Positions 4,129 to 32,000 are shown, counted from the stretch's first letter. The stretch is 32,000 nucleotides of DNA from Formosa sp. Hel1_33_131 (GCF_001735745.1 NZ_CP017260.1:990001-1022000); one strand, 5' to 3'. Numbers and translations are program-made. Notes: generated from the letters alone by a model not told the origin.

Positions 4129-5679
4129 TTATTTTACTTGATGTGTAAACTTTAAAAGATCATTCACTGTTTTAACAGGGTTGAATGTGATAATTGGAAC
4201 TTCCACAAAAATTGTATTCCAATCGGCCATGCTGCCATTCCATAAACCGGGCCTCTCTAAGGTTTTGAGTTTTTGACCGTATTTTGTTTTTGTCGTCACA
4301 AAGTAAGTATTAGAATCTATAAATTGCTCTAAATCATAGGCTTCCCCTTTGTAATTTTTGACACCACAAATAATATCAACAGGATTAAAGTGCGTGGCAT
4401 TTGTCAAAATAGCTTTCTGATTTTTTAGATTTATATCCACTTGACTCGCTTCTACTATTTGCAACGATACTTCTCCATTGTCATGCCTTACCCAAAAAGG
4501 GCCACCTCCAGGTTCACTTTCATTTTTTACCATCCCACAAACCCGCATTGGGCGGTTAATTTTGGACTGTAAATATTCGATTTTATGCTTATTTGCATAT
4601 TTGCTGAATTGAGAGCTAATTACAATATTTAGGTTTTGGGTTAAAAATCCTGCAATTTCTTCTATATCAACTTTAGATATGCCTTTAGACTCCAAGGCTT
4701 TTGCATAGGAAAATACCTGACTTTGCGTCTTCAATAATATGCCCGCAAGTGCTTTTTTATAGCGCACTATTTCATCTAGATAGTTGTTAACCACAACATT
4801 ATCTACATTTTTAATAAAAATAATATCGGCATTAATTTGATTTAAATTTTTTATTAAGGCACCATGTCCCGACGGTCTGAACAGTAGTTTGTTTTTTAAC
4901 CTAAAAGGGGTGTTTTTTAAATCTACTGCCAAAACATCTGTATTCGGTTCTTGATTTGAGAACGTGATTTTGAATGTGGTATTGGTTTTGGTTTCAACCT
5001 GTTCTTGTATAGATGCTAATTTTGTCTGGAATTGTTTCAAATGCGTTTTAGTAATCGTAAAATGCAATACAGCTTTGCCATTTACAGAAGCATATTTTGC
5101 CGCTTCGAATAAATGTTCTTCAAAAGCGGTTGAAATATGATTTTTGTACTTGTGAAAAGGCAATAATCCTTTGGGGATGTTTGAATAATTTAAATACGTT
5201 TCTTCTAAGATGGTCTTCACAAACAAGAGGCGTCTTTGATCTAAAGTGAGCAAGTCATAATCCGGGATCATTGCCCGCATTTTAGCAACTGCTTCATCAT
5301 GAAATGGAAGTTTTTCGATGGTTACAAAAAACAAAAACAATTCAGTGATTTTATTTTTATTTATATAAGAATTGATCGATTCTTTTTGAGGGTCGTAATC
5401 CGCCAAAAATTCATGCAACATCTTAAACATTCGCGAAGCTGCCCCAGAAGCTGGTGTAAATTTAACTACGGCAAGACAGGTTTTCTGTTCTTCATAATAT
5501 TCAATGAACTCATTAATTTCTAAGTCTGAAAGTTTTATGATGCCTTTGCCTATAGTTGCCGAGGCTTTTAAATTCACAAAACCTAGAGGTGACTTATAGT
5601 GCTCTAATTGCTTGGCAACATCTGTCAAGCTAAGCCCTAAGCTTTCAAAATGCTCTATGTCTGAAGGGGTATAATTCAA
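4129..5679 (-). CDS. DUF4301-like protein with UDPGP-type nucleotidyltransferase-like motifs
   Basis: 516 aa. The TTG start overlaps the TGA stop of the upstream gene (TTGA). The motifs TPASGAASRMFK, RPSGHGA and IKNVDNVV resemble the Gly-rich loop, PxGHG and N(I/V)DN motifs of UTP-sugar-1-phosphate uridylyltransferase-type enzymes. The DUF4301 assignment is from memory of this gene neighbourhood, not from a search. Confidence 0.6.
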   Translation of the reverse strand: MNYTPSDIEHFESLGLSLTDVAKQLEHYKSPLGFVNLKASATIGKGIIKLSDLEINEFIEYYEEQKTCLAVVKFTPASGAASRMFKMLHEFLADYDPQKESINSYINKNKITELFLFFVTIEKLPFHDEAVAKMRAMIPDYDLLTLDQRRLLFVKTILEETYLNYSNIPKGLLPFHKYKNHISTAFEEHLFEAAKYASVNGKAVLHFTITKTHLKQFQTKLASIQEQVETKTNTTFKITFSNQEPNTDVLAVDLKNTPFRLKNKLLFRPSGHGALIKNLNQINADIIFIKNVDNVVVNNYLDEIVRYKKALAGILLKTQSQVFSYAKALESKGISKVDIEEIAGFLTQNLNIVISSQFSKYANKHKIEYLQSKINRPMRVCGMVKNESEPGGGPFWVRHDNGEVSLQIVEASQVDINLKNQKAILTNATHFNPVDIICGVKNYKGEAYDLEQFIDSNTYFVTTKTKYGQKLKTLERPGLWNGSMADWNTIFVEVPIITFNPVKTVNDLLKFTHQVK

Positions 5680-6245
5680 ATCGTTGGTATTAAAAGTTGG
5701 TTTATGTGGTTGACCGCATTTTTCAATCGGTTCGTTTTAGAACCGCTTAAAATCACATAAGGGAGCTCCTGTTTTTGTAAAGCCGCTTCAAATGCTGAAA
5801 ACATTTTTTTTCGTTCATAGGGCTTGTCTCTCAAATCGTCTGCCACCCAAGGAACATCAATGTCACATAAAAAGTACAAGTTATAACAATTTTTTTTAGC
5901 ATAGTCCTTAATTACAGGATCACAGTACCCATCATAGTAAACTTCAGAGTATACTTTTGTTTCCAGCAGGTTGGTATCGCAAAATAAGAGTTCGTCTGTT
6001 TTGGCTGCAGCCGCATTTTCTAATTGCATTTGACCGATCGCAATTGGCAATAAATCAGACCGCTCACAGGTTTTTTGTTCAATGTCCCATTTATTTTGAA
6101 GATAGTCTCGCGCATATTCAGCAACCCAATGTGTGCCGTAATGTTCTGCCAACGCTTTAGATAAGGTTGTCTTTCCTGTAGATTCTGGACCAAATAAAAC
6201 TACTTTTATGCAGTTTGAATGTTGTTGTTCAAGTGTTTTTTCCAT
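5676..6245 (-). CDS. NadR-type ribosylnicotinamide-kinase-like P-loop ATPase (stand-alone kinase domain)
   Basis: 189 aa with Walker A GPESTGKT. The CDTNLLETKVY and WVADDLRD segments match the TD..TT and WVDDGLR segments of the C-terminal kinase domain of NadR. There is no N-terminal NMN adenylyltransferase domain. Confidence 0.75.
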   Translation of the reverse strand: MEKTLEQQHSNCIKVVLFGPESTGKTTLSKALAEHYGTHWVAEYARDYLQNKWDIEQKTCERSDLLPIAIGQMQLENAAAAKTDELLFCDTNLLETKVYSEVYYDGYCDPVIKDYAKKNCYNLYFLCDIDVPWVADDLRDKPYERKKMFSAFEAALQKQELPYVILSGSKTNRLKNAVNHINQLLIPTI

Positions 6246-6838
6246 GCTAAAAATCCAAATATAGCTATAATTGTAAAACCTAAATATTGTAAACTAGAAA
6301 ATGTAAACCCTTTGTAAAAATATAGGGGCACTGATATTATATCTGCCACAATCCAAAAAATCCAATTTTCTATTTTCCGTTTTGCCATCAACCACATCCC
6401 TACAAAAAATAAAGCTGTTGTGAGTGTATCTACATAAGCAACCCAGCCCTTCCACATATCAAAAATCTGATAGACCACAAACACAAATAATAAGGTCGAT
6501 ATAAAAATAATTACCCCTGTGAACTGTTCTCTTTTGGTCATTCTAGATATTGGAGTGACGTGTTCGGAATCTACTTTTCGGGTCCAAATATACCATCCAT
6601 ATAAACTCATTATAAAATAATAGCCGTTAATCATCATATCGCCGATAAGCTGCCATTTAAATAATAAATACACAAATATAGAGGTGCTTACCAATCCCGT
6701 TGGAAAGACCAGAATATTGTTTTGTTTGGAGTACCAAACAGAGGCAAACCCAAAGATGACGGCGGTTATTTCTAGCACAATATCCGTAAGTGCATAGCCG
6801 CTGTATTGTTCAAATAAAAAATTAAAAATGTGGCTCAT
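6206..6838 (-). CDS. pnuC: PnuC-family vitamin transporter (nicotinamide riboside PnuC or thiamine PnuT type)
   Basis: 210 aa multi-pass membrane protein. It has the two PnuC signature regions FASVWYSKQNNILVFPTG and VGMWLMAKRKIENWIFWIVADIISVPLYFYKG. It overlaps both neighbouring genes. Confidence 0.8.
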   Translation of the reverse strand: MSHIFNFLFEQYSGYALTDIVLEITAVIFGFASVWYSKQNNILVFPTGLVSTSIFVYLLFKWQLIGDMMINGYYFIMSLYGWYIWTRKVDSEHVTPISRMTKREQFTGVIIFISTLLFVFVVYQIFDMWKGWVAYVDTLTTALFFVGMWLMAKRKIENWIFWIVADIISVPLYFYKGFTFSSLQYLGFTIIAIFGFLAWKKHLNNNIQTA

Positions 6839-7094: not shown

Positions 7095-7727
7095 TTAAAA
7101 ATTAGGGCCTACAATGGCACATCCAAATCCTTCAAATTCCATGAAAATGGCTTTATACTTAGACCTCTGATTGTCTTCAATAACCCAAGCTGTTGTACTG
7201 TTAGCCTCTGTTCCAAAAGGCAGAACCAAAAAATGTTTTTTAAACACCATTCCTGAGATTGCATATAATTTATAAAGCGATTCTTTTATACACCAGATCC
7301 AAGTCAATTTTTGAATCAGTTTAGGATCCTTTTCAGTTAAGTAAGAATCTTCATAGCCAATAAATTTCGAAGCAATTTTAATTATTTTTTCGCGTTGTTT
7401 TTCAATGTCAACCCCTACTGGTCTTGAACTCACCACCACCGCTGAAAATGTATAAGAATGCGTAATAGAAATGTGTTTTCCATCTTTCAAATGAGGTTTC
7501 CCAAATGCATCATATACCAAATCTTCATCTACATAGCCAAATTCAGCAAGTAACATTCGAACACTTAAAAATCCACGTTGATGCAATTCACTTTTCATCC
7601 CATTGACGCGCTCTAAACTTTCAGCTTTCAACACGAGTTGCCCAGTGAAAAAATCTTTGGATTCAGAGATCTTCCAGATTTTAACAATAGTTTGTGAATT
7701 TAAAACAAGTGATTTATAAAGTGGCAT
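7095..7727 (-). CDS. 4'-phosphopantetheinyl transferase superfamily protein (Sfp-type)
   Basis: 210 aa with the GKPHL, ISITHS and WCIKESLYK motifs (the W..KE..K signature of PPTases). Confidence 0.75.
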   Translation of the reverse strand: MPLYKSLVLNSQTIVKIWKISESKDFFTGQLVLKAESLERVNGMKSELHQRGFLSVRMLLAEFGYVDEDLVYDAFGKPHLKDGKHISITHSYTFSAVVVSSRPVGVDIEKQREKIIKIASKFIGYEDSYLTEKDPKLIQKLTWIWCIKESLYKLYAISGMVFKKHFLVLPFGTEANSTTAWVIEDNQRSKYKAIFMEFEGFGCAIVGPNF

Positions 7728-10864: not shown

Positions 10865-12184
10865 ATGAAAAAATGCTTATGTTCTTTAGCTGCTTTGCTT
10901 TTGATGACTTTAACAATCTCAGCGCAAGAAGTTAAATTTGAAGAGTACGATTTAAGTAACGGTATGCACGTTATTTTACATCAAGACAACACAGCGCCTG
11001 TTGTAACAACTTCGGTTATGTACCATGTTGGTGCAAAAGATGAAAATCCAGAACGTACTGGATTTGCACACTTTTTTGAACACCTGTTGTTTGAAGGGAC
11101 TAAAAATATTCCTAAAGGTGAATGGTTTACAATTGTATCTTCTAACGGAGGAAGCAACAACGCTAATACTACCGATGACCGAACTTACTACTATGAAGTA
11201 TTTCCTTCAAACAATGTAGAGCTAGGGCTGTGGATGGAATCTGAACGTTTATTACATCCTGTTATTAACCAAGATGGTGTTGACACTCAAAACGAAGTTG
11301 TAAAAGAGGAAAAAAGATTAAGAGTTGACAACAGCCCTTATGGAAAATTTCTTGAGATGATCAAAGTTAACATGTTTAAAAAGCATCCTTATAAAGGAAC
11401 TACGATTGGAAAAATGGCGCATTTAGATGCTGCAACTCTAGAAGAGTTTCAAGCATTTAATAAAAAATTCTATGTGCCTAACAATGCTGTTTTAGTAGTT
11501 GCTGGTGACATTGATGTTGCAGCGGTTAAAGTAATGATAGAAAATTATTTTGGACCGATTCCAAGAGGTGAAGACATTGTTAGAGATTTTCCAAAAGAAG
11601 ATCCAATTACTGAGCCTATGCGAGCGAAAGCTTACGACTCAAATATTCAAATTCCAGCAGTGATGGCCGCCTACAGAACGCCTTCATTTAAAGACAGAGA
11701 CGCTTATGTGTTAAGTATGGTCTCAACCTATTTGAGTGATGGAAAAACTTCTAAGCTATATAAAAAGATGGTGGATGATAAAAAAATGGCGCTACAAGTT
11801 GGTGCTCTTGATTTTAGTCAAGAAGACTATGGAACCTATATACTATATGCATTGCCTTTAGGAGATGTTTCATTGGACGATCTTGTTGCTGAAATGGATG
11901 AAGAAATTGTAAAACTACAAAACGAACTTATTTCTGAAAGAGACTACCAGAAAATTCAAAATAAATTTGAAAACAACTTTGTAAGTTCAAACTCAAGTTT
12001 TGAAGGAATCGCAAATTCATTGGCACGTTACTATATGTTATATGGCGATGTTAATTTAATCAACAATGAAATTGAAATCTACCGTTCTATAACACGTGAA
12101 GAAATCAAAGCGGTTGCTAACAAATATCTGAATGCAGACCAACGATTGATATTAGAATACTTACCAGAATCCGATAAGGAATAA
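10865..12184 (+). CDS. M16 (pitrilysin/insulinase) family zinc peptidase, catalytic subunit type
   Basis: 439 aa with a signal peptide, the inverted zinc motif HFFEHLLFEG (HxxEH) and a downstream glutamate region (NEVVKEEKR). Confidence 0.85.
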   Translation: MKKCLCSLAALLLMTLTISAQEVKFEEYDLSNGMHVILHQDNTAPVVTTSVMYHVGAKDENPERTGFAHFFEHLLFEGTKNIPKGEWFTIVSSNGGSNNANTTDDRTYYYEVFPSNNVELGLWMESERLLHPVINQDGVDTQNEVVKEEKRLRVDNSPYGKFLEMIKVNMFKKHPYKGTTIGKMAHLDAATLEEFQAFNKKFYVPNNAVLVVAGDIDVAAVKVMIENYFGPIPRGEDIVRDFPKEDPITEPMRAKAYDSNIQIPAVMAAYRTPSFKDRDAYVLSMVSTYLSDGKTSKLYKKMVDDKKMALQVGALDFSQEDYGTYILYALPLGDVSLDDLVAEMDEEIVKLQNELISERDYQKIQNKFENNFVSSNSSFEGIANSLARYYMLYGDVNLINNEIEIYRSITREEIKAVANKYLNADQRLILEYLPESDKE

Positions 12185-12202: not shown

Positions 12203-14269
12203 ATGAAAACTAAATTATACATATTAATTGCCGTGTTTTTCATGTCTCTGGGAGTGAATGCTCAGATTGACCGCTCACAGCAACCAAAACCAGGGCCTGC
12301 TCCAGTAATTTCACTAGAGAAGCCACAAGAATTTGAATTAAAAAACGGCCTCAAAGTATTGGTTGTTGAAAACCATAAACTGCCAAGAGTGTCCTTTAAC
12401 TTAGCTTTTGACAGAGACCCTGTATTAGAAGGTGAAAAAGCTGGTGTTACATCGCTTTTAGGAGCCATGTTAGCAAACGGTACTACCACGATCTCTAAAG
12501 ACGATTTTAATGAAGAAATTGACTTTTTAGGTGCGCGATTGAGTTTTGGTTTTAGCGGAGGTTCTGCAAATTCACTAACAAAATACAGCAATCGTATGTT
12601 GGAATTGTTAGCAGATGCAGCTATGAATCCTCTACTTACTGAAGAAGAATTTCAAAAAGAAAAAGAAAAACTTATTGAAGGGATCAAGTCAGATGCTAAA
12701 AGTGTTGATGCAATTGCAGGACGTGCTGGTGGTGCATTGGCTTACGGCAAACAACACCCTTATGGTGAGTTTGTCACTGAAGAATCGGTTGAAGCAGTGA
12801 CTCTTGAAGACGTGAATGCTTATTATCAAAAATACTTTACACCCAACAATACGTATTTAGTGATTATTGGAGATGTCAACACAAAAGCCGTTGTTAAGCT
12901 TGTAAAAAAGTATTTCAAAAAATGGGAAAAAGCAGCGACTGCAACAACGGTTGTTGTAGAACCAAATGCGAATCCTGAGTCTTTAGAAATCAATTTTATT
13001 GACATGCCAAATGCGGTGCAGTCCAATATTTCTTTGACAAGCACTGTAAAGCTAAAAATGAGTGATCCTGATTACCATGCAGTTCTTATTGCAAATAAAA
13101 TACTAGGTGGTGGGTTTAATAGTTACTTAAACATGAACCTTCGTGAAGAGCATGGCTATACGTATGGTGCACGTTCTTCTGTTGGAACAGACAAATACAT
13201 CTCTCGTTTCAGAGCTGGAGCTGCCGTAAGAAATGCAGTGACTGACAGTGCTGTAGTTCAAACCATCAAAGAAATCAAACGCTTTCAAGCGGAGCCTGTA
13301 GAAGCGGATGCTTTATCAAATGCCAAAGCAAAGTATGTAGGTGATTTTGTATTAGCACTTGAAAGACCAAGTACGATTGCTCAATATGCAATCAATACAA
13401 AAATTAATGAATTACCAGAAGATTTCTATGCGACTTATTTAGAGAAAATAAACGCAGTCTCTATTGAAGATGTAAACCGTGTTGCAAACCTGTATTTTAC
13501 AGCAGACAATGCACGCATCATCGTCGTTGGTAAAGGAAGTGAAGTGATCGGAAATCTCGAAAAAACAGGCATTCCAATCAACTACTTTGACACCTTTGCA
13601 AACCCAGTTGAAAAGCCTGAGTTTACAAAGCCAATCCCCGCAGGCGTGACTGCTGCAACGGTGCTTGACTCTTACATTACCGCCATTGGAGGTCTTGAAG
13701 CTGTCAATGCAGTAAGCTCTGTAATGACATCAGCTAATGTTACTATTGAAGGAATGCCCTTTAAACCAACCGCGGTATCGAAAGTTATGACACCTAACAT
13801 GTCATCAATGGAAATGTCTATTGAGGGAATGGGAACGGTTATGAAGCAAAAGTTTGATGGTACTGAAGGCTATGCCGAACAACAAGGAATGAAACAACCA
13901 ATGTCTGAAGACGAGCTTGCTGAAAAAGCAAAAGAAAAAGGCTTATTTCCAGAAACTTATTTAGATGCAAGCACATTAACCTTGGTTAGCTTATCTGCTA
14001 TTGACGGCGTTGATGTTTACAAACTAAAAGTTGAAGAAGATGCTTATCGTTATTATGACGCTGCTACTGGACTTTTGGTGAGAACTGAAAAATCACAAGA
14101 AGCACAAGGTCAAACAATAACCTCTGTTCAAGATTTATCTGATTACAGAGAAGTGAATGGTGTCTTGTTTCCATTCGTACAGAAAATAACTGCAGGCCCT
14201 CAAGTCATTGGGATGGCTGCAAGCGAGATTGTCGTTAATGACGGCGTCTCTGCAGAAGATTTTAAATAA
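12203..14269 (+). CDS. M16 family peptidase-like protein, non-catalytic partner type, with a ~225-aa C-terminal extension
   Basis: 688 aa with a signal peptide. It has M16 architecture, but the HxxEH position reads GVTSLLGAMLANGT, so there is no zinc site. The gene lies 18 nt after the catalytic paralogue. Confidence 0.8.
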   Translation: MKTKLYILIAVFFMSLGVNAQIDRSQQPKPGPAPVISLEKPQEFELKNGLKVLVVENHKLPRVSFNLAFDRDPVLEGEKAGVTSLLGAMLANGTTTISKDDFNEEIDFLGARLSFGFSGGSANSLTKYSNRMLELLADAAMNPLLTEEEFQKEKEKLIEGIKSDAKSVDAIAGRAGGALAYGKQHPYGEFVTEESVEAVTLEDVNAYYQKYFTPNNTYLVIIGDVNTKAVVKLVKKYFKKWEKAATATTVVVEPNANPESLEINFIDMPNAVQSNISLTSTVKLKMSDPDYHAVLIANKILGGGFNSYLNMNLREEHGYTYGARSSVGTDKYISRFRAGAAVRNAVTDSAVVQTIKEIKRFQAEPVEADALSNAKAKYVGDFVLALERPSTIAQYAINTKINELPEDFYATYLEKINAVSIEDVNRVANLYFTADNARIIVVGKGSEVIGNLEKTGIPINYFDTFANPVEKPEFTKPIPAGVTAATVLDSYITAIGGLEAVNAVSSVMTSANVTIEGMPFKPTAVSKVMTPNMSSMEMSIEGMGTVMKQKFDGTEGYAEQQGMKQPMSEDELAEKAKEKGLFPETYLDASTLTLVSLSAIDGVDVYKLKVEEDAYRYYDAATGLLVRTEKSQEAQGQTITSVQDLSDYREVNGVLFPFVQKITAGPQVIGMAASEIVVNDGVSAEDFK

Positions 14270-23220: not shown

Positions 23221-24765
23221 ATGACAAATCAAGGGGAAAGTTTCAAGAAAGTTATTTCGCATGCCAAAGAATACGGATTTGTATTTCAGAGTAGTGAAAT
23301 TTACGATGGCCTAAGTGCTATTTACGATTATGCACAAAATGGTGTAGAGTTAAAGAAAAATATTCGTGAGTATTGGTGGAAAGCCATGGTTCAAATGAAT
23401 GAGAACATCGTAGGTTTAGATGCGGCTATTTTCATGCATCCTACTACTTGGAAAGCGTCTGGTCACGTCGATGCTTTTAACGATCCTTTGATTGACAATA
23501 AAGATTCTAAAAAACGCTACAGAGCCGATGTTCTTGTGGAAGATTATTGTGCTAAAATTGAAGGCAAGATTGAGAAAGAAGTCAAGAAAGCTGAAAAACG
23601 TTTTGGAGACAGTTTTGATAAAAGCGAGTTCATCTCAACAAACGGAAGAGTCGTTGGCTATCAAACCAAAATAAACAGCATTTTATCGCGACTGGCCAAA
23701 TCTTTAGAAAATGAAGATTTAGCCGATGTGAAAGCACTTATTGAAGAACTTGAAATTGCAGACCCTTTAACCGGTAGTAAAAACTGGACCGATGTAAAGC
23801 AATTCAACCTGATGTTTGGCACCAAACTAGGCGCTTCCGCCGAAAGTGCGATGGATTTATATTTACGTCCTGAAACAGCCCAAGGTATTTTTGTAAATTT
23901 TTTAAACGTTCAAAAATCGGGGCGCATGAAAATCCCTTTTGGAATTGCACAAACAGGAAAAGCTTTTAGAAATGAAATTGTAGCACGTCAGTTTATTTTT
24001 AGAATGCGTGAATTTGAACAAATGGAAATGCAATATTTCATCAAACCAGGAACTCAAAAACAATGGTACGAGCATTGGAAAGAAGCCCGTATGAAATGGC
24101 ATTTATCATTAGGGATGGGCGCCGACAATTACCGATTCCACGATCATGAAAAATTAGCACACTATGCAGATGCTGCTTCCGATATCGAATTTAAATTCCC
24201 TTTTGGATTCAAAGAATTAGAAGGCATTCACTCACGTACCGACTTTGATTTAAGTCAACACGAAAAACATTCTGGCAAAAAACTTCAATATTTTGACCAC
24301 GAAGAAAATAAAAATTACACACCTTACGTTCTAGAAACGTCCATCGGATTGGACCGTATGTTTTTGGCCGTATTTTCAAATGCATTGACCGAAGAAACTT
24401 TAGAAAATAATACCACTCGAACCGTGTTGAAACTGCCCGCAGTCTTAGCACCTATCAAAGCAGCGATTTTACCCCTGGTAAAAAAGGATGGATTGCCTGA
24501 AGTTGCAAAAACTATTTTAAGTGATTTGAAATGGGATTTCAATGTGGTATATGATGAAAAAGATGCGGTTGGAAGACGTTACCGTCGCCAGGATGCACTA
24601 GGAACACCCTTTTGTATTACCGTGGATCATGATACTTTGGAAGATCATTGTGTCACCATCAGACATCGGGATTCAATGCAACAACAACGAGTAAAAATAG
24701 AAGATTTAAAAACGATTATTGAAAATGAAGTCGCCATGAAACACTGGCTAAAGAAAATTAACTAG
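23221..24765 (+). CDS. glyQS: glycine--tRNA ligase (dimeric class II type)
   Basis: 514 aa with class II motifs (RPETAQGIFVNF, FRNEI..R, GLDR) and a C-terminal anticodon-binding domain. Confidence 0.95.
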   Translation: MTNQGESFKKVISHAKEYGFVFQSSEIYDGLSAIYDYAQNGVELKKNIREYWWKAMVQMNENIVGLDAAIFMHPTTWKASGHVDAFNDPLIDNKDSKKRYRADVLVEDYCAKIEGKIEKEVKKAEKRFGDSFDKSEFISTNGRVVGYQTKINSILSRLAKSLENEDLADVKALIEELEIADPLTGSKNWTDVKQFNLMFGTKLGASAESAMDLYLRPETAQGIFVNFLNVQKSGRMKIPFGIAQTGKAFRNEIVARQFIFRMREFEQMEMQYFIKPGTQKQWYEHWKEARMKWHLSLGMGADNYRFHDHEKLAHYADAASDIEFKFPFGFKELEGIHSRTDFDLSQHEKHSGKKLQYFDHEENKNYTPYVLETSIGLDRMFLAVFSNALTEETLENNTTRTVLKLPAVLAPIKAAILPLVKKDGLPEVAKTILSDLKWDFNVVYDEKDAVGRRYRRQDALGTPFCITVDHDTLEDHCVTIRHRDSMQQQRVKIEDLKTIIENEVAMKHWLKKIN

Positions 24766-24784
24766 AGATTAAATTTAACCAATT

Positions 24785-24983
24785 TTGATATTAAACATAA
24801 AACACCTTTTTTATATACTGGTATTTTTAAATACGAGTACTTTTTTTGGTCAAATAAATGACCCTCCAACAGTGACCGCTGTTGGCGATCAAATCTATTG
24901 TCCTCAAAGTCAACAGCGGATTGTGACTTATTTTAACGTCACCGACCCAGATGATACGCTTATAGCAGCCAATTGGAATGCAA
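24785..24983 (+). pseudogene. truncated 5' fragment of the C-type-lectin adhesin gene
   Basis: It has the same TTG start, signal peptide and first 60 codons as the gene at 25168 (MILNIKHLFYILVFLNTSTFFGQINDPPTVTAVGDQIYCPQSQQRIVT...). It then has an in-frame 81-bp gap relative to 25348-25428 and about 20 nt matching 25429-25446. After that it breaks into glyQS-like sequence in another frame. Confidence 0.75.
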
Positions 24984-25148
24984 GGGAAACCGTTTTGCAT
25001 TACTGTAGATCATGACACTTTAGAAGACCATTGCGCCACCATCAGACATCGAGACTCCGTGGAGCAACAACGTGTGAAAATAGAAATTTTAAAAACAATA
25101 ATTGAAAATGAAGTCGCCATGAAATAGTGGCTAAAGAAAATTAACCAG
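24984..25148 (+). pseudogene. diverged duplicate of the glyQS 3' end (last ~54 codons) with a premature stop
   Basis: It translates to GKPFCITVDHDTLEDHCATIRHRDSVEQQRVKIEILKTIIENEVAMK*WLKKINQ. The genuine glyQS end is GTPFCITVDHDTLEDHCVTIRHRDSMQQQRVKIEDLKTIIENEVAMKHWLKKIN*. A TAG lies at 25125-25127, and the original stop position reads CAG. Confidence 0.85.
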
Positions 25149-25167
25149 AGATTAAATTTAACCAATT

Positions 25168-27834
25168 TTGATATTAAACATAAGACACCTTTTTTATATA
25201 CTGGTATTTTTAAATACGAGTACTTTTTTTGGTCAAATAAATGACCCTCCAACAGTGACCGCTGTTGGCGATCAAATCTATTGTCCTCAAAGTCAACAGC
25301 GGATTGTGACTTCTTTTAACATCACCGATCCAGATGATACGCTCATACCTGCCTTTTACATTCAAATTTCTTCAGGCTATGTTTTAGGACAAGACCAACT
25401 CCTTTTATCGGGATCACACCCTACTATAGCAGCCAATTGGGATGCAAACCAAGCCAAATTAACATTGACGGGGCTTAGTGGCGGTTCTGCCAGTTACACC
25501 GATATTATTGCAGCGGTTTATGATGTTGTTTTTAACAGTAGCACTATAAATGTGGGAGCCAAAACCTTTTCATTAACTGCGGGTTCTGCTAATTATTTAG
25601 CTTCAACAGATCATTACTATGACTATGTGCCTTCCAATTTAATTACGTGGACCAATGCCAAAGCGACTGCTGAAACGATGAATTATTTTGGATTACAAGG
25701 CTATTTAGCCACCTTAACCATCCCTGACGAAGGACAAATATCTGGGGAGTTATCGCCTGGAACAGGCTGGATTGGCGCCTCAGATGTAGCAAGTGAAGGC
25801 GTCTGGAAATGGATGACAGGTCCAGAAGCTGGCGATAACTTAGCCTATACCAATTGGAATTCCGGTGAACCTAATGATTACGGGAGCGGCGAAGATTATG
25901 CACACATTACTTATAATACAGGAATTCCAGGGTCTTGGAACGATTTACCAAACAACACTACTGGACAACCCTATGATTATCAAGCCAAAGGCTTTGTTAT
26001 TGAATACGGAGGAACACCCGGAGATCCTGTCTTAAATATATCTGCGTCCACAACTTTCAGTCCGCCTCAAATATTGTCAACCAGCCCATCTGTAAGTTGT
26101 GGGAATGACCCTGCAAACCTGTCGGCAACCTCAAACACCAACGATATTTTATGGTATGACAGTCAAAACGGAGGTGCCCTTTTACATACTGGAGACACCT
26201 ACAATCCTGTTTTAACCACAAGCACCACCTTTTGGGTTTTAGCGTCTAATAATGGCTGTACCACTGGAACCAGAACTGCCGTGACTGCCACGGTTAATTC
26301 CGCTCCAACAGTGGACACCCCAGCAAATGTGTCTTCTTGTGATAGCTATACCTTGGCAGCACTCTCCAATGGAGATTATTTCACAGCAACCAATGGCGGA
26401 GGAACCCCTGTCAATGCAGGCGATGTCATCTCTGCTTCTACCACCTTATTTGTGTATGCAGAAACAGCCACAACGCCTAACTGTACTAGTGAACACGCTT
26501 TTGATATTACAATCAATACAACGCCAGTGGTAGATACGCCAGCAGATGTTTCTGTTTGTGATAACTATACATTACCGGTACTGACCAATGGAAATTATTT
26601 TACAGCTTCCAATGGCGGCGGAACAACGCTCAATGCAGGAGACGTGATCTCAGCTTCCACGACCTTATTTGTGTATGCAGAATCCGCAACCACCCCTAAC
26701 TGTAGCAATGAGCATTCTTTTGACATCACCATTAATATCACTTCAAATACGACGTTTACACAACTAGGACCTATTTGTGAAGGAGGCTCATTAACACTCC
26801 CTACAACATCCATTGAAGGGATTACAGGAACATGGTCGCCCATTTTTGACAATACAGTTTCAGATACTTATACCTTTGCGCCCGATTCGAATCCCTGTGC
26901 CAATAGCACTACAATGACCATCATGGTGAACCCTATTTTCACCCCCACCTTTACGCAAGTACCCACCATTTGTGTTGGGGATGTTTTACTGGATTTACCA
27001 ACGGTTTCAAATGAAGGCATTAGTGGCACTTGGTCGCCAGCCATAAATAATACCATCACAACAGAATACACTTTTACACCTACGCCTGTAACAGGAAGTT
27101 GTTTTGCAGAAACCAAAATGACCATCTCAGTCTTGACGCAAACAATCCCTTTATTTACACAAGTTGACCCCATTTGTATCGGCAGTGTGCTGGCCCCTTT
27201 ACCTACCACTTCCAATGGGGGTATTACAGGCGATTGGAGTCCTGCTTTAGATAATTTAGCAACAACGCTTTATACTTTCACACCAGACCCTGGGCAATGT
27301 GCAGACGTCACCACCATGACCATTGTGGTGAATCCCATCAGTGTTTTAACAATCGACGCGACAAAGCTGTCGGAAGATTTTGATGCGAATCAAGTTATTT
27401 CAGTGTCTGCTACGGGCGGAAGTGGGACTTATGAATACCAATTGAATGGCGGTGTTTGGCAAAGCAATGCAACCTTTGAATATGTAATTGGATGTCAAGA
27501 ACATACGGTGGCTGTACGTGATGCACTTGGGTGTAGCACAATCCCTGAAACAACAGTAATGATTATGGAATTTCCAAAATTCTTTACGCCAAATGGCGAT
27601 GGGTATAACGACACTTGGAACATCAAATGTTTGAGAGATGACCCCACTGCGTTGATCTCTATTTTTGACCGTTTTGGAAAACTGCTGTTTCAATTTAGTC
27701 CCAATCGCAGTGCATGGAATGGCACCTTTAATGGCTCCATGTTAACAGGAACCGATTATTGGTTTGGAGTGAATTACCTAAACAGTAAGGGAGTGGAAAC
27801 GCAATTTAAATCCCACTTTTCGTTGAGGTATTGA
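25168..27834 (+). CDS. T9SS (type-B CTD) secreted surface protein with a C-type-lectin-like head, Ig-like domain, two 73-aa repeats and three ~65-aa two-Cys repeats
   Basis: 888 aa with a TTG start (no nearby in-frame ATG) and a signal-like N-terminus. The C-type-lectin-like segment has WIGASD...EGVWKW...EPN...WND. The C-terminal motif FFTPNGDGYNDTW...F..FGK...WNG......YWF is typical of the gliding-motility/T9SS type-B sorting domain. Confidence 0.85.
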   Translation: MILNIRHLFYILVFLNTSTFFGQINDPPTVTAVGDQIYCPQSQQRIVTSFNITDPDDTLIPAFYIQISSGYVLGQDQLLLSGSHPTIAANWDANQAKLTLTGLSGGSASYTDIIAAVYDVVFNSSTINVGAKTFSLTAGSANYLASTDHYYDYVPSNLITWTNAKATAETMNYFGLQGYLATLTIPDEGQISGELSPGTGWIGASDVASEGVWKWMTGPEAGDNLAYTNWNSGEPNDYGSGEDYAHITYNTGIPGSWNDLPNNTTGQPYDYQAKGFVIEYGGTPGDPVLNISASTTFSPPQILSTSPSVSCGNDPANLSATSNTNDILWYDSQNGGALLHTGDTYNPVLTTSTTFWVLASNNGCTTGTRTAVTATVNSAPTVDTPANVSSCDSYTLAALSNGDYFTATNGGGTPVNAGDVISASTTLFVYAETATTPNCTSEHAFDITINTTPVVDTPADVSVCDNYTLPVLTNGNYFTASNGGGTTLNAGDVISASTTLFVYAESATTPNCSNEHSFDITINITSNTTFTQLGPICEGGSLTLPTTSIEGITGTWSPIFDNTVSDTYTFAPDSNPCANSTTMTIMVNPIFTPTFTQVPTICVGDVLLDLPTVSNEGISGTWSPAINNTITTEYTFTPTPVTGSCFAETKMTISVLTQTIPLFTQVDPICIGSVLAPLPTTSNGGITGDWSPALDNLATTLYTFTPDPGQCADVTTMTIVVNPISVLTIDATKLSEDFDANQVISVSATGGSGTYEYQLNGGVWQSNATFEYVIGCQEHTVAVRDALGCSTIPETTVMIMEFPKFFTPNGDGYNDTWNIKCLRDDPTALISIFDRFGKLLFQFSPNRSAWNGTFNGSMLTGTDYWFGVNYLNSKGVETQFKSHFSLRY
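25609..26013 (+). other. C-type-lectin-like domain (Cys-less, EPN and WND motifs retained)
   Basis: Residues ~148-282. The segment reads HYYDYV..ITWTNAKATAE...GYLATLT..E..., GWIGASDVASEGVWKWMTGPEAG, NWNSGEPND (EPN at 25867-25875), EDYAHI and GSWNDLPN (WND at 25936-25944). Confidence 0.7.
26299..26736 (+). repeat. two tandem 73-aa (219-bp) coding repeats
   Basis: Residues ~378-450 and 451-523. Both read T.VDTPA.VS.CD.YTL..L.NG.YFTA.NGGGT..NAGDVISASTTLFVYAE.ATTPNC..EH.FDITIN. Confidence 0.8.
26749..27336 (+). repeat. three tandem ~65-68-aa two-cysteine coding repeats
   Basis: The first Cys of each unit is at residues 537, 602 and 670. The unit consensus is FTQ..PIC.G..L..LPT.S.EGI.G.WSPA..N....YTFTP....C....M.I.V.P. 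Confidence 0.85.
27231..27683 (+). repeat. near-identical tract shared with 29981-30433 (dispersed direct repeat inside paralogous genes)
   Basis: I counted 5 mismatches in 453 nt, with 27436-27683 fully identical. The flanks are clearly more diverged on both sides. Confidence 0.85.
27562..27831 (+). other. T9SS type-B C-terminal sorting domain (CHU_C / gliding-motility CTD type)
   Basis: EFPKFFTPNGDGYNDTWNIKCL...ISIFDRFGKLLFQF...WNGTFNG....TDYWFGVNY......FKSHFSLRY. Confidence 0.8.
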
Positions 27835-27959
27835 AAGCACTGTACTTCCCAAAAAAATAGTTTTTAAAACATAGTACAGAAAAACATTAAAAATAACCAT
27901 GTAATAAAATATTCGTTTTTTTTCTTTATCTTGATTGTTGAACCTAGTGAATCTAAACA

Positions 27960-30584
27960 TTGATGCTCTTACGTAAGACCTCAACGCATATAGCGTTATT
28001 TATTTTAATCTTGATATGCTTTCAAACGGCTTCTCATGCACAGTTAAATGCAGTTACTATTGGCAGTGCTTCAGACTTAGGGAGCAATTGTTTTCGAATC
28101 ACTCCTGATCAATTCGATCTATCTGGTGGAGCTTGGTATGACAACCCCATAAATTTTTCAAATGATTTTACAATCTTTTACGAAAATAATTTTGGAACTA
28201 AAGACGGAAATGGTGCAGATGGAATGGCACTTGTTTTTAAAACGAATGCGACAGCTGTGATCGGTGGTACTGGAGGGGGGATTGGTTATGCAGGAATTTC
28301 AAATTCACTGATTGTAGAGTTTGACACCTTTAAAAATGGCGACCTAGGAGATGCGACTGTAGATCACATCGGAATCATGTCTAACGGCGTTCCAAATCAC
28401 TCATCAAGTTCAAGTCTTGCAGGACCTATTCAGGCGAGTTCAACGAGCGGAAATATAGAAGACGGCATTGATCATAATATCAAAATCGTTTGGACTGCTA
28501 GCTCTAAAACTTTGGAGGTGTTTTTTGATTGTATTTTAAGACTTTCTGTAACCAAGGATGTGAAAACGGATATTTTTAATGGAGATGATTCTGTGTTTTT
28601 TGGCTTTGTGGGTTCCACTGGAGGATTCTCTAACTTACATCAAGTTTGTTTTAACAGAATCTCATTTGTAGATAATTTTAATTTAGTAGATACGGCCATT
28701 TGTTCGGGTGAAACAGTTCAATTAGATGCTACAATCCCGAGTGGAGTTACCTATTCTTGGAGTCCAACAACGGGTGTTAGCAATCCTTCTATTGCAAACC
28801 CAATTTTATCTCCGACAAGCACAACAACTTACACCGTTACAATTAATGATGTTTGTGGCGACTCTATTACTGAAGATGTTTTAATCACTATTAATCCGAG
28901 CGGAACTTCTGATTTTGCTCAAATCGATCCCATTTGCGAAGGAAGTGGCAACCCATTAACAAGCACTTCAATCAATGGAATTACAGGTGCTTGGTCACCA
29001 GCCTTTAATTCTACAGCCACAACAACCTATACCTTCACCCCAGATGCTGGGCAATGTGCCAGTACAGCAACCATGACCATCACAGTCAATCCGATCATTG
29101 CACCAACGTTCAATCTTATAAACTCCATTTGTATTGGAGATACTTTAGCCGCTTTACCAACCACTTCTAACGAGGGCGTTATTGGAATTTGGAGTCCAGC
29201 TCTTGATTCCACAACAACAACAACCTATACCTTTATGCCGAGTGCAAATCAATGCGCAAATACAATCACAACAACCATCACGGTCAATCCAATCATTACG
29301 CCCTCGTTCAATCCAATAAACTCTATTTGTGATGGGGATACTTTAGCGCCTTTACCAACCACTTCTAACGAAGGAATTACTGGCAGCTGGAGTCCTGCTC
29401 TTGATAACACAATAACAACGACTTATGCGTTTACACCAGATATAGGGCAGTGTGCAATTCCTTCAAATCTAACGATTGTTGTAGTGCCAAACAGTCTTTC
29501 TACTTTTACACAAATACCGCCTATTTGTGAAGGAGATGCACTAACACTCCCTACGACTTCCATTGAAGGTTTTACAGGAACATGGTCGCCTGCTTTTGAC
29601 AACACAACTCCAGACACTTATACGTTCACCCCTGATGCTGGGCAATGTGCCAGTACAACTACAATGAACATTGTTGTGATTCCCATTATGACTCCAACAT
29701 TTACGCAAGTAGCCACCATTTGTGTTGGTGACGTTTTAATGACTTTACCAACGGTTTCAAATAATGGCTTTAGTGGCACTTGGTCGCCTGCCATAAATAA
29801 TACCATCACAACGGAATATACTTTTACAGCTACTCCTGTTACAGGAAGTTGTTTTGCAGAAACCAAAATGACCATTACGGTCTTAACACAAACAACGCCG
29901 TTTTTTACGCAAGTTGACCCCATTTGTATCGGGAGTGTGCTGGCACCTTTGCCCACCACTTCCAATGGTGGCATTACAGGCGATTGGAGTCCTGCTTTAG
30001 ATAATTTAGCAACAACGCTTTATACTTTCACACCAGACGCTGGACAATGTGCAGACGTCACCACCATGACCATTGTGGTGAATCCCATCAGTGTTTTAAC
30101 AATCGACGCTACAAAGCTGTCGGAAGATTTTGATGCGAATCAAGTTATTTCAGTGTCTGCTACGGGCGGAAGTGGGACTTATGAATACCAATTAGATGGC
30201 GGTGTTTGGCAAAGCAATGCAACCTTTGAATATGTAATTGGATGTCAAGAACATACGGTGGCTGTACGTGATGCACTTGGGTGTAGCACAATCCCTGAAA
30301 CAACAGTAATGATTATGGAATTTCCAAAATTCTTTACGCCAAATGGCGATGGGTATAACGACACTTGGAACATCAAATGTTTGAGAGATGACCCCACTGC
30401 GTTGATCTCTATTTTTGACCGTTTTGGAAAACTACTGTTTCAATTTAAACCCAGTCAAAATGCATGGAATGGTGTGTTTAATGGATTGATGTTACCAGCG
30501 ACTGATTATTGGTTTGTGGTAAATTACTTGAAAAGTAATGACGTACAAACGGAGTTCAGATCCCATTTTTCATTACGCCATTGA
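27960..30584 (+). CDS. T9SS (type-B CTD) secreted surface protein with an L-type (legume-lectin-like) head, Ig-like domain and six ~65-aa two-Cys repeats
   Basis: 874 aa. The track starts at the TTG at 27960, and an ATG follows at 27963. The signal peptide is LLRKTSTHIALFILILICFQTASHAQ. It has L-type lectin hallmark motifs, six repeats and the same CTD as the upstream gene. Confidence 0.85.
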   Translation: MMLLRKTSTHIALFILILICFQTASHAQLNAVTIGSASDLGSNCFRITPDQFDLSGGAWYDNPINFSNDFTIFYENNFGTKDGNGADGMALVFKTNATAVIGGTGGGIGYAGISNSLIVEFDTFKNGDLGDATVDHIGIMSNGVPNHSSSSSLAGPIQASSTSGNIEDGIDHNIKIVWTASSKTLEVFFDCILRLSVTKDVKTDIFNGDDSVFFGFVGSTGGFSNLHQVCFNRISFVDNFNLVDTAICSGETVQLDATIPSGVTYSWSPTTGVSNPSIANPILSPTSTTTYTVTINDVCGDSITEDVLITINPSGTSDFAQIDPICEGSGNPLTSTSINGITGAWSPAFNSTATTTYTFTPDAGQCASTATMTITVNPIIAPTFNLINSICIGDTLAALPTTSNEGVIGIWSPALDSTTTTTYTFMPSANQCANTITTTITVNPIITPSFNPINSICDGDTLAPLPTTSNEGITGSWSPALDNTITTTYAFTPDIGQCAIPSNLTIVVVPNSLSTFTQIPPICEGDALTLPTTSIEGFTGTWSPAFDNTTPDTYTFTPDAGQCASTTTMNIVVIPIMTPTFTQVATICVGDVLMTLPTVSNNGFSGTWSPAINNTITTEYTFTATPVTGSCFAETKMTITVLTQTTPFFTQVDPICIGSVLAPLPTTSNGGITGDWSPALDNLATTLYTFTPDAGQCADVTTMTIVVNPISVLTIDATKLSEDFDANQVISVSATGGSGTYEYQLDGGVWQSNATFEYVIGCQEHTVAVRDALGCSTIPETTVMIMEFPKFFTPNGDGYNDTWNIKCLRDDPTALISIFDRFGKLLFQFKPSQNAWNGVFNGLMLPATDYWFVVNYLKSNDVQTEFRSHFSLRH
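28041..28670 (+). other. L-type (legume-lectin-like) lectin domain
   Basis: Residues ~28-237. GADGMALVF (compare ADGLAFF), SLIVEFDTFKN (compare VAVEFDT), VDHIGIMSNG (compare NHIGIDVNS) and FFGFVGSTGG (compare VGFSATTG) occur in the order found in legume lectins. Confidence 0.7.
28908..30083 (+). repeat. six tandem ~65-68-aa two-cysteine coding repeats
   Basis: The first Cys of each unit is at residues 326, 391, 457, 523, 588 and 656, giving nt periods of 195, 198, 198, 195 and 204. The consensus is the same as in the upstream gene. Units 4-6 are collinear with the three units of the upstream gene at offset 2750. Confidence 0.85.
29981..30433 (+). repeat. near-identical tract shared with 27231-27683
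   Basis: This is the partner copy of the 453-nt tract, at offset 2750. Confidence 0.85.
30312..30581 (+). other. T9SS type-B C-terminal sorting domain
   Basis: EFPKFFTPNGDGYNDTWNIKCL...ISIFDRFGKLLFQF...WNGVFNG....TDYWFVVNY......FRSHFSLRH. Confidence 0.8.
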
Positions 30585-30751
30585 AAACGACTAAAAAATA
30601 GGGGGTATTTCTTCAACTCAAAAATTAAAAACCAATCTTCCTTAATTCTGTTTGATTTATTGTTTTTTAAAAGTAATATGAGGGTTTAAATACTTTGTAT
30701 TTGGATTATTTTTCATTTCTTTGAAGGATTAACCAATTTTAAGCTTACATA

Positions 30752-32000
30752 TTGATATTAAACCCTAGTGCTTCGACCCGTATAGCGTTGTTTATTTTAA
30801 CCATTATCTGTTTTCAAACAGCTTCCCACACACAAACCTTAAATACAATTCGAAATGGTACACCAGGCTCAGGAGTATGGATGGGAAATAATGGATTAGC
30901 CCCATGGGTTTTGGGTAAGGGCGACGATTGTTATCGAATAACCACTTCAGACCAAGGTCAAGGTGGAGCAGTATGGTATAATCACCCGATCAATTTTAAT
31001 AATCCTTTCACGATTAGTTATCAAGCTTATTTTGGACTTAATCAAAGTGGTGGAGATGGTATGGCCCTTGTTTTTAAGAGTAATAACAATAATGAGTTAG
31101 GATCAACAGGTGAAGGTATAGGATATGGAGGAATTAGTCCTTCAATGATTTTTGAGTTTGACACCTATTGGAACAGCGGAAAAGGGGATCCTCGTCCTGA
31201 ACCTAATGAAGATCACGTCGCATTCAACTGGTGGGGAAATCCAAATCACAACACATCTGCAATATCAAGTGTTCAGTCTGTTCCAAATATTGAAGACGAC
31301 GCCTTCCATGAAGTTAAAGTGACGTGGGAACCAGCGCCTGTTAGTCGACTTAGGCTTTATTTAGATTGTGACCTAAAATTAAGTATTAATGGGTTGTATA
31401 TTCAAACTGGCGTTATGGGTGGAGATTATACCAATTATTATTTTGGTTTTACAGGCTCCACAGGGGCAAACACAAACGCACAATTTGTTTGCTTTAACAG
31501 TATTTCATTTGTTGATGGCCTTAATATACCAGATACCACCATTTGCGAGGGACAAACAGTAACATGGATAAACGCTTTAATCCCCTCTGGGACCTCCTAC
31601 AGTTGGAGTCCAACAACGGGCGTTAGCAACCCTAACATTTCAAATCCAACATTCACACCCACTACCACAACAACCTATACCGTTAGTATTAGCGATGTGT
31701 GTGGGGACGTCACAACTGAAGATGTTACAATCAACGTCAACCCAAATATAGTTCCTAGTTTTCTAGTTGATGTTGATCTTTTCTGTGTAGGAGATGCCAA
31801 CCCATTAAACAACACCTCTTTAGAAGGAATTACAGGCAGCTGGTCGCCTGCCTTTGACAATACAACTTCTGGAACCTATACATTTACACCAACTGCAGGA
31901 CAATGCGCAACTACAGCAACAAAAACCATCACAGTCAATCCGTTTATTGACTCTAACTTTAATACTGTTGCCGACATTTGTGATGGCGACCCTTTAGCAC
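30752..32000 (+). CDS. third lectin-headed surface protein (L-type lectin head, Ig-like domain, at least 2 two-Cys repeats); the 3' end lies outside the window
   Basis: It is missing from the ORF track because no stop falls in the window. I translated frame 2 by hand from the TTG at 30752; a TAA at 30740-30742 closes the frame upstream. The product reads (M)ILNPSASTRIALFILTIICFQTASHTQ...GGDGMALVFKS...MIFEFDTYWN...EDHVAFNW...YFGFTGSTGA...ICEGQTVTW...YSWSPTTGVSNP...FCVGDANPLNNTSLEGITGSWSPAFDNTTSGTYTFTPTAGQCA. It stays open for 416 codons to the window end. Confidence 0.75.
   Translation, partial: MILNPSASTRIALFILTIICFQTASHTQTLNTIRNGTPGSGVWMGNNGLAPWVLGKGDDCYRITTSDQGQGGAVWYNHPINFNNPFTISYQAYFGLNQSGGDGMALVFKSNNNNELGSTGEGIGYGGISPSMIFEFDTYWNSGKGDPRPEPNEDHVAFNWWGNPNHNTSAISSVQSVPNIEDDAFHEVKVTWEPAPVSRLRLYLDCDLKLSINGLYIQTGVMGGDYTNYYFGFTGSTGANTNAQFVCFNSISFVDGLNIPDTTICEGQTVTWINALIPSGTSYSWSPTTGVSNPNISNPTFTPTTTTTYTVSISDVCGDVTTEDVTINVNPNIVPSFLVDVDLFCVGDANPLNNTSLEGITGSWSPAFDNTTSGTYTFTPTAGQCATTATKTITVNPFIDSNFNTVADICDGDPLA
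30833..31510 (+). other. L-type (legume-lectin-like) lectin domain, diverged paralogue of 28041-28670
   Basis: It has the same four hallmark motifs in the same order: GGDGMALVF, MIFEFDTYWN, EDHVAFNWWG and YFGFTGSTGA. Confidence 0.65.

Follow-up and report, generated by a model that had tools for sequence, protein, structure and literature searches.

A variable tandem array of candidate lectin-tipped surface proteins downstream of glyQS in Formosa sp. Hel1_33_131

How do planktonic flavobacteria of the Formosa clade, which are major consumers of algal polysaccharides in spring blooms, capture glycans, particles or algal cells outside of their polysaccharide utilisation loci, a process that is poorly understood? 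The question is raised by an array of three tandem genes, referred to here as g1, g2 and g3, that lies in a 32,000-nucleotide stretch of the genome of Formosa sp. Hel1_33_131 (NZ_CP017260.1:990001-1022000, the whole of which we call the window), a strain isolated from the North Sea and kept in culture, whose genome has 2.74 Mb. A first-pass annotation made from the sequence of the window had placed three same-strand open reading frames (ORFs) at 25168-27834, 27960-30584 and from 30752 onward, coordinates which proved to be exact, and had read them as a modular family of cell-surface glycan-binding adhesins. Our analyses support that reading through matches of the encoded proteins to lectins, through their type IX secretion system (T9SS) type B sorting domains and through the variability of the locus, and we consider that the genes probably specify a small set of lectin fibrils at the cell surface, in which different sugar-binding heads are carried on a common stalk and anchor. 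The locus is a source of candidate lectin-tipped fibrils whose metal-dependent sugar sites can be predicted, and the strain is in culture and has proteome data. These results do not change the current picture. The domain families were known before, as were the secretion route and the plan of head, stalk and anchor, and the interest lies in the dynamics of the locus and the tractability of the cultured strain.

The array is on the plus strand, directly downstream of glyQS, the gene for glycyl-tRNA synthetase (23221-24765). Gene g1 (25168..27834) has a TTG start and encodes a protein of 888 aa that is FORMB_09520/WP_069676330.1 of Formosa sp. Hel1_33_131 (100% identity across all 888 residues), named "T9SS type B sorting domain-containing protein" in RefSeq. 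Gene g2 (27960..30584) encodes 874 aa, with a TTG at 27960 and an ATG at 27963, and g3 opens with a TTG at 30752 and leaves the window after 416 visible codons (30752..32000). As read from their sequences, all three proteins begin with a signal-peptide-like stretch in which a basic n-region precedes a hydrophobic core and a site of small residues ahead of a Gln, the predicted cleavage sites being FFG/Q (25231-25236) at the end of the g1 signal peptide (25168..25233, residues 1-22), SHA/Q (28038-28043) in g2 and SHT/Q (30830-30835) in g3. A Gln at position +1 in all three fits the Bacteroidetes Q-rule, by which exported proteins carry an N-terminal pyroglutamate. After its signal peptide, g1 comprises a beta-sandwich domain, a C-type lectin-like domain, an immunoglobulin (Ig)-like Ig_7 domain, two 73-aa repeats, three stalk repeats, an SprB-like segment and a type B sorting domain. 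The first-pass annotation had these g1 modules right apart from the beta-sandwich (residues 23-145) and the two 73-aa repeats (26296-26733), both of which it missed. The order in g2 is signal peptide, L-type lectin head, Ig-like domain, six stalk repeats, SprB-like segment and type B sorting domain, and the visible part of g3 runs from a signal peptide through an L-type lectin head of a second type (residues 28-255) and an Ig-like module to one full stalk repeat and the beginning of another. For g3, which continues beyond the window, the full-length view comes from orthologs in long-read contigs of relatives (L164 and L167-L170), which have 1398 aa, at least 14 repeats, a type B sorting domain with CHU_C and a head that is 99% identical to that of g3.

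The head of g1 is a two-domain cassette, and its second domain (25603..26067, residues 146-300) contains the motifs WIG, EPN, E and WND. A phmmer search of the PDB with the g1 head matched mosquito GCTL-1 (E 2e-9) and rat MBP-C (E 1.5e-8), with EPN, the following Glu and WND aligned, and a profile built from 44 homologs of the g1 family reached CLEC4F (E 1e-7). Searched in isolation, the domain scored 23.3 bits against Pfam Lectin_C (PF00059), for which the cut-off is 22.6, and the homologs P0262 and P0264 (39-41% identical) scored 268 and 297 bits for the same family. WIG, E212, P213, N214, E220, W235 and N236 do not vary across the 44 homologs, and D237 shows a conservation of at least 90%. 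On sequence grounds, we accept that this g1 domain belongs to the C-type lectin-like class, as had been proposed, and that the head carries a complete putative EPN/E/WND calcium-sugar site. These three elements are shared with animal C-type lectins (rat MBP-A/C, CLEC4F and mosquito GCTL-1), from which the g1 domain differs in having no disulfides and a shortened loop before EPN. The first domain of the cassette (25234..25602, residues 23-145, ~120 aa) matched no Pfam family but was predicted by AlphaFold2 (AF2) as all-beta with a predicted local distance difference test score (pLDDT) of about 90. In a search of cluster representatives, this domain type was found to recur 14-27 times in giant adhesins, one of which, P0409, carries bacterial cadherin-like domains (Cadherin_3/4/5).

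The heads of g2 (28041..28679, residues 28-240) and g3 are of a different class. Both matched Pfam Lectin_L-type_dom (PF18483) well above its cut-off of 78.3 bits (142.2 bits for g2, 147.6 bits for g3), which bears out their earlier description as L-type or legume-lectin-like, and the PDB entry 7ELV, a "legume lectin", matched an L-type head at E 1e-36. A literature search for PDB 7ELV or 7EXO returned nothing. In sequence alignment, an L-type head lines up with peanut lectin at the pattern VEFDTxxN....D....DH, at the ADG motif and at the glycine loop, so that the g2 and g3 heads share with legume lectins (peanut lectin, PDB 7ELV) the E-x-D, N, D, H, ADG and Gly-loop elements. E93, D95, N99, D104 and H109 are invariant in 12 L-type heads, and A59/D60/G61 are invariant or nearly so. 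We take E, D, N, D and H to be the Mn/Ca ligands of legume lectins, and the Asp of ADG, the Gly loop and the Asn to be the sugar triad; the L-type heads are thus predicted to hold a complete legume-lectin metal site together with the Asp, Gly and Asn sugar-binding positions. The array heads are unlike both animal and legume lectins in being fused to a T9SS stalk and anchor. Between g2 and g3, the heads have 47% identity, the first stalk repeats 59% and the Ig modules 65%, by which the earlier statement that these heads are clearly more diverged than the stalk is weakly true.

In each gene the head is followed by an Ig-like module, as the first reading of the window had it. That of g1 (26080..26298, residues 305-377) scored 57.7 bits against Pfam Ig_7 (PF19081), that of g2 is seen by structure prediction, and that of g3 gave a sub-threshold 17.9 bits for Ig_7. 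Gene g1 then has its second type of repeat (26296..26733), comprising two units of 219 nt (73 aa with two Cys each), of which homologs of g1 have 0-7 copies. The stalk that is common to the array is formed of two-Cys Ig-like repeats of ~66 aa. Their count agrees with the earlier one: three in g1 (26737..27336, residues 524-723), six in g2 (28680..30086 together with the Ig-like module, residues 241-709), and one complete repeat plus the start of a second in g3. As isolated modules, neither the 73-aa repeat nor the stalk repeat matched a credible Pfam family. AF2 modelled residues 232-520 of g2 (the Ig-like module with three repeats) as all-beta with a pLDDT of 90, and the top six PDB matches to this model in Foldseek were all fragments of the protein GhpA (E 4e-9 to 9e-8, query-normalised TM-score 0.41-0.51), with generic tandem Ig proteins ranking next. 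In addition, the g1-family profile matched GhpA at E 1e-48, with the C-terminal domain included. A single-sequence search of the PDB with three stalk repeats gave nothing meaningful, and GhpA was reached only by profile or by structure. The top-ranking Foldseek matches and the profile match together indicate that the common stalk is a short version of a structurally characterised type of stem.

A substrate of Sec and the T9SS, GhpA has a signal peptide and a binding head, then 52 Ig-like repeats with disulfides and probable O-glycans, and finally a T9SS sorting domain (bioRxiv 10.1101/2024.01.29.577165). The GhpA of Aureispira sp. CCB-QB1 (PDB 9FLP, 9FLS, 9FLU-9FLY) is like the array proteins in its N-terminal head, its stem of small Ig domains and its C-terminal sorting domain. 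However, it has 5898 aa and 52 repeats and forms heptamers, whereas the complete genes of the window encode 874-888 aa and 4-8 Ig-like domains; GhpA carries a hook-like adhesin module as its head, whereas the array heads are lectins; and homologs of PorP and PorE are encoded directly downstream of GhpA, whereas the array has no linked shuttle or anchor genes. Array proteins are smaller than GhpA also when those of relatives are counted in (874-1624 aa, with relatives reaching 2284 aa and 18 repeats). The description that suits the array proteins best is that of short members, tipped with lectins, of the GhpA/SprB class of T9SS type B surface fibrils.

The anchor was recognised in the two genes whose 3' ends are in the window. 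The type B sorting domains of g1 (27568..27831, residues 801-888) and g2 (30318..30581, residues 787-874) scored 104.1 and 105.4 bits against TIGR04131, three times its cut-off of 35, as well as 53.7 and 57.7 bits against Pfam CHU_C (PF13585, cut-off 27), confirming that both genes end as had been proposed. The SprB-like segment reported before these domains was located, in g1 at 27337..27567 (residues 724-800), but its match to Pfam SprB is sub-threshold (19.7-22.5 bits against 28); PF13573 is recorded in some homologs. The proteins also appear to be made by the bacterium. In the Formosa B subproteomes, FORMB_09520 accounted for 0.060% of relative intensity-based absolute quantification (riBAQ) in the membrane-enriched fraction in one replicate, 0.031-0.073% riBAQ in the extracellular fraction in one replicate, and 0.0008% riBAQ in the intracellular fraction (PMC6246565, Tables S2A-C). 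FORMB_09530, which judging from the order of locus tags is probably g2, was present at lower levels still (PMC6246565). These values represent weak but real evidence of expression and are consistent with export.

Several observations weigh against a family of surface lectins. Over the whole g1 protein, Lectin_C scores 19.7 bits and is under the 22.6 cut-off. Residues 40-310 of g1 contain zero cysteines, which means that the canonical C-type disulfides are missing. The AF2 model of the C-type domain has a pLDDT of <50 at residues 172-245, the sugar-binding loops, and a Foldseek search of the PDB with the g1 head model, in which these loops are poorly modelled, returned insignificant antibody-like matches only. 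No PorP/SprF or PorE gene was found between the array genes of the window or flanking the array in four relatives (L085, L164, L165 and L002), whereas SprB and GhpA have adjacent PorP/SprF or PorE genes; it is on this basis that the array proteins are regarded as presumptive "orphan" type B substrates. The detections of FORMB_09520 in the proteome are sporadic and low-level, each being from one replicate (PMC6246565), and the 3' end of g3 is outside the window. Lastly, a literature search found no binding or secretion experiment on any member of the family, nor any work on an L-type lectin combined with the T9SS in flavobacteria, in keeping with the first-pass annotation, which knew of no experimentally characterised protein of this exact architecture.

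If the array does encode surface lectin fibrils, Sec would take the proteins through the inner membrane and the T9SS through the outer one, and they would be held at the cell surface by a PorP/SprF-like shuttle encoded elsewhere. Such a shuttle is needed by type B substrates and is encoded directly downstream for nine of the 12 substrates of Flavobacterium johnsoniae, in which three orphan type B substrates use one common unlinked shuttle (PMC12618676). Orphan substrates in the array plausibly use one shuttle as well, and a common shuttle would explain why the anchor has been kept similar while the heads differ. Seen in this way, the array is a group of orphan type B substrates, assembled by nature, whose anchors are nearly identical, and it bears on how one shuttle may serve several cargoes. 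By analogy with GhpA, at about 4 nm per Ig domain, the stalk may put the lectin roughly 15-60 nm from the cell. The heads would be expected to bind glycans in a metal-dependent manner, with EPN predicting mannose, glucose, N-acetylglucosamine (GlcNAc) or fucose-type sugars, and their likely targets would be algal polysaccharides, particles or other cells in phytoplankton blooms.

Four alternatives to surface-held lectin fibrils were considered. It is unlikely that the array encodes released lectins, soluble or loosely bound, which agglutinate cells, coat particles or capture dissolved polysaccharide for uptake. Release would fit with the recovery of FORMB_09520, in single replicates, from the extracellular fraction, with there being no adjacent anchor gene, and with the recovery of fusions of sfGFP to a type B sorting domain from F. 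johnsoniae culture supernatant (PMC12618676). However, FORMB_09520 was also found in the membrane-enriched fraction, and a long, rigid Ig-like stalk fits best with a head that is tethered.

A role as gliding-motility adhesins like SprB or RemA, carried along a gliding track so that the lectin heads give traction on glycan-coated surfaces, also seems improbable. The F. johnsoniae SprB has, like the array proteins, a TIGR04131 domain and a repetitive Ig-like body, and the type B sorting domain preceded by an SprB-like segment is an argument in favour of such a role. However, SprB has 6497 aa, which makes the array proteins 10-fold smaller, and no lectin head; its SprF is encoded immediately downstream and is required, whereas no sprF-like gene is linked to the array; and the match of the array to the SprB repeat is a weak, sub-threshold one. 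The lectin domain of RemA, also of F. johnsoniae, belongs to another family (rhamnose-binding, SUEL-type), and RemA is not known from a head-variable tandem array. RemA has been described as a mobile surface lectin and resembles the array proteins in being a T9SS-secreted surface protein with a sugar-binding lectin domain, but it has a type A sorting domain that is handled by PorV (PMC12618676). Gld proteins are listed in the proteome paper on Formosa B, but the clade is planktonic and has small genomes (PMC6246565).

We likewise see little chance that the heads are lectin folds that do not bind sugars and instead make protein-protein contacts, or provide variable surface decoration under pressure from phages or grazers. 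Many C-type lectin-like domains are not lectins, the sugar-loop region of the g1 head could not be modelled, and the strain-level variability of the locus (described below) may be of the kind typical of surface structures under predation. Against this, the full set of residues for calcium site 2 (EPN, E, WND) is invariant across the 44 homologs, the legume-lectin metal ligands are invariant in the 12 L-type heads, and their ADG and Gly loop are conserved; such invariance is hard to explain without the binding of ligands at those sites. It is very improbable that the proteins are miniature grappling hooks, that is GhpA-like multimeric filaments that catch other cells, since, although the stalk and C-terminal region are homologous to those of GhpA, they have 4-18 Ig-like domains in comparison to 52, lectin heads rather than the GhpA hook module and no GhpB/GhpC (PorP/PorE) genes downstream, and the clade has no sign of a predatory lifestyle.

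Tethered lectin fibrils remain our preferred reading, and the sequences of g1 and g2 provide evidence of how different heads can come to stand on one anchor. The 3' kilobase of g2 (29502..30571) has 89% DNA identity to g1 26752-27821, and over these last 1.07 kb the encoded proteins are 83% identical, while the 5' halves of the two genes are unrelated. The identity climbs in the 3' direction, with paired repeats being 68%, 88% and 95% identical in amino acid sequence and the last 498 nt being 92% identical. The orthologs of g1 and g2 in the relative L090 have tails that are only 69% identical to each other, and the g2 tail of the window is 83% identical to that of L090 g1 versus 70% to that of L090 g2, demonstrating that g2 carries a g1-type tail. 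That tail on a gene with an L-type head is direct evidence of recombination of heads and anchors between paralogs, and directly supports the earlier proposal that heads are exchanged on a conserved stalk. Going by the aligned genes, the conserved stalk and anchor proper are those shared by g1 and g2.

The 5' ends point in the same direction. Regions around the starts of g1 (25140-25180) and g3 (30725-30765) have in common an upstream word, TTAACCAATTTT, and a start context, TTGATATTAAAC, coding for MILN, the first four residues of both proteins, from the TTG. These two elements overlap in g1 and are ~13 nt apart in g3, and the 5' region of g2 differs. The 5' context common to g1 and g3 suggests that 5' ends have been exchanged between members of the array too.

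A further rearrangement is found at the upstream border of the array. A repeat search with TRF identified a 383-bp tandem duplication (24601..25347, plus strand; 1.9 copies, 91% identical) that covers the 3' end of glyQS, the spacer and the 5' end of g1. The extra material, 24766-25167, comprises a dead 5' fragment of g1 with an internal deletion of ~33 codons (about 24786-24975), followed by a dead 3' fragment of glyQS with a premature stop (about 24976-25150). Besides the window, L084, L085 and L001 have the duplication, whereas L002, L090, L164 and L165 lack it. In relatives that do not have it, glyQS and g1 are separated by about 17-20 nt, a gap that suggests co-transcription or a promoter inside glyQS.

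A possible case of exchange on a wider scale was found in two loci from different metagenomes, L085 (9810-10660) and L092 (about 5540-6390), which have in common a block of ~850 nt that is 100% identical with flanks that are ~85% identical. The block is formed of the last 740 nt of a gene and 110 nt downstream of it. To the left of the block L085 is 100% identical to the window, and the switch occurs at a 37-nt stretch common to all three sequences. The block is explained either by a recent exchange from one population to another or by a chimeric assembly. L085 was also considered as a strain without g3 and was rejected in this role; the switch at the 3' end of its g2 could be an assembly chimera, and L084 supports the version in the window.

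Is the array a fixed feature of this position in related bacteria? The array family was found downstream of glyQS in none of 80 listed GTDB species representatives whose GlyRS is 71-88% identical, a list from which closer species may be missing; judged by these representatives, the linkage to glyQS is specific to the Formosa Hel1_33_131 clade. Within that clade the flanks are syntenic, with sdhCAB, Big_5, a phosphoribosyltransferase and glyQS upstream, and a protein of ~1100 aa (minus strand), xth and an OmpA/MotB-like protein downstream. Every syntenic relative examined has at least one family member or remnant in the slot. Populations whose flanking genes are 94-100% identical differ in how many array genes they have, in the type of head and in the length of the stalk. 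The glyQS slot is a conserved position with variable content. The first-pass annotation, which suggested a variable accessory locus, was therefore correct as regards its variability, given the range of 1-4 genes, the different head types and orders, the 2-18 stalk repeats per gene, the remnants and the duplication, but the locus is not purely accessory. As the metagenome loci were picked with an L-type probe, the frequencies of the different content types are biased.

The content takes several forms. The slot holds a C-type gene only in L002, L003 and L165, an L-type gene only in more than 20 loci, and a C-type followed by an L-type gene in L001 and L090. In L091 the order is C-type, L-type, C-type, the first copy being split over two ORFs, and in L092, where glyQS is not in the locus, a 5'-cut gene whose head is not visible is followed by an L-type and a C-type gene. 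The longest arrays, in L164 and L167-L170, have a C-type gene (888 aa), two L-type genes (1624 aa with 17 repeats, and 1398 aa) and a fourth gene, of the p2 type. In L164 the second and third of these are each split into two ORFs (7141-7338, 11977-12184); since the same genes are intact (1624 and 1398 aa) in L167-L170, the splits are probably long-read frameshift errors and not pseudogenes. The fourth gene is intact (1044 aa) in L168, whereas in L167, L169 and L170 it is a 122-aa remnant from which the lectin domain has been deleted. Remnants of p2-type L-type genes also occur at the distal end of the array in L164 (14446-15794), L165 (11198-12544) and L002 (about 12870-13710), each comprising a signal peptide and the first ~30 residues of the head, followed by pieces of the Ig, stalk and SprB-like regions, with a conserved gene for a predicted membrane protein of 112 aa located between the 5' and the 3' parts. 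In L088 a stub matching the first ~55 codons of g1 (4745-4894) is right after glyQS and is followed by an L-type lectin gene, and this lineage seems to have lost its C-type gene by deletion.

Possibly, the array is a cassette system that diversifies glycan recognition at the level of strains, with recombination between paralogs shuffling heads, 5' ends and stalk lengths onto one anchor that is served by a single, unlinked shuttle. We propose this tentatively and do not expect it to be the likelier outcome. Hints in its favour are the g1-type tail on g2, the TTAACCAATTTT ... TTGATATTAAAC 5' context in g1 and g3, the fourth gene that is intact or internally deleted in one sample set, and the 850-nt identical block with flanks differing by 15%; exchange is possibly also taking place between co-occurring populations. 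If such a system does exist, closely related Formosa populations in a bloom would display differing sugar-binding repertoires and fibre lengths. The composition of the array could in any case serve as a marker of micro-diversity among populations with near-identical flanks.

Outside of this clade, the architecture itself is common rather than rare, and RefSeq already annotates it. The g1 architecture was found in more than 115 protein clusters, and the two-domain g1 head matched 10,044 cluster representatives at E <=1e-3 and 349 at <=1e-30, often in T9SS type B proteins. Many Flavobacteriaceae in culture have the L-type architecture, in proteins named "lectin-like domain-containing" or "T9SS type B sorting domain-containing protein". 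Those of Winogradskyella forsetii (676 aa), Robiginitalea, Flagellimonas, Psychroflexus and Algibacter lectus have the same architecture as g2 and g3 with 38-50% identity, but differ from the array in being encoded by single genes in unrelated contexts, not beside glyQS, and in having a short, fixed stalk of 2-3 repeats. The stalk repeats appear to break short-read assemblies and array-type genes appear truncated in metagenome-assembled genomes; owing to this systematic truncation, array-type genes are probably under-counted. When the g2 head was searched by itself, all 25 database proteins that it recovered were short and had no sorting domain, and those named by NCBI are labelled 'partial'.

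Upstream of the array, sdhCAB and a Big_5 protein are encoded among ordinary housekeeping DNA, and the G+C content of the region has nothing unusual. A promoter scan, using a consensus unsuited to Bacteroidota, gave 17 matches versus 18.6 expected by chance, a terminator scan was likewise at chance level (7 matches versus 5.8 expected), and a search of the window against Rfam identified no RNA family. Beyond the array, a flanking protein of 1074-1145 aa is encoded on the minus strand in every relative examined (for example L085 11137-14574, L164 15815-19039 and L165 12576-16013). It matched no family in Pfam or NCBIfam, and its C terminus, ...LKAYF, resembles that of an outer-membrane beta-barrel.

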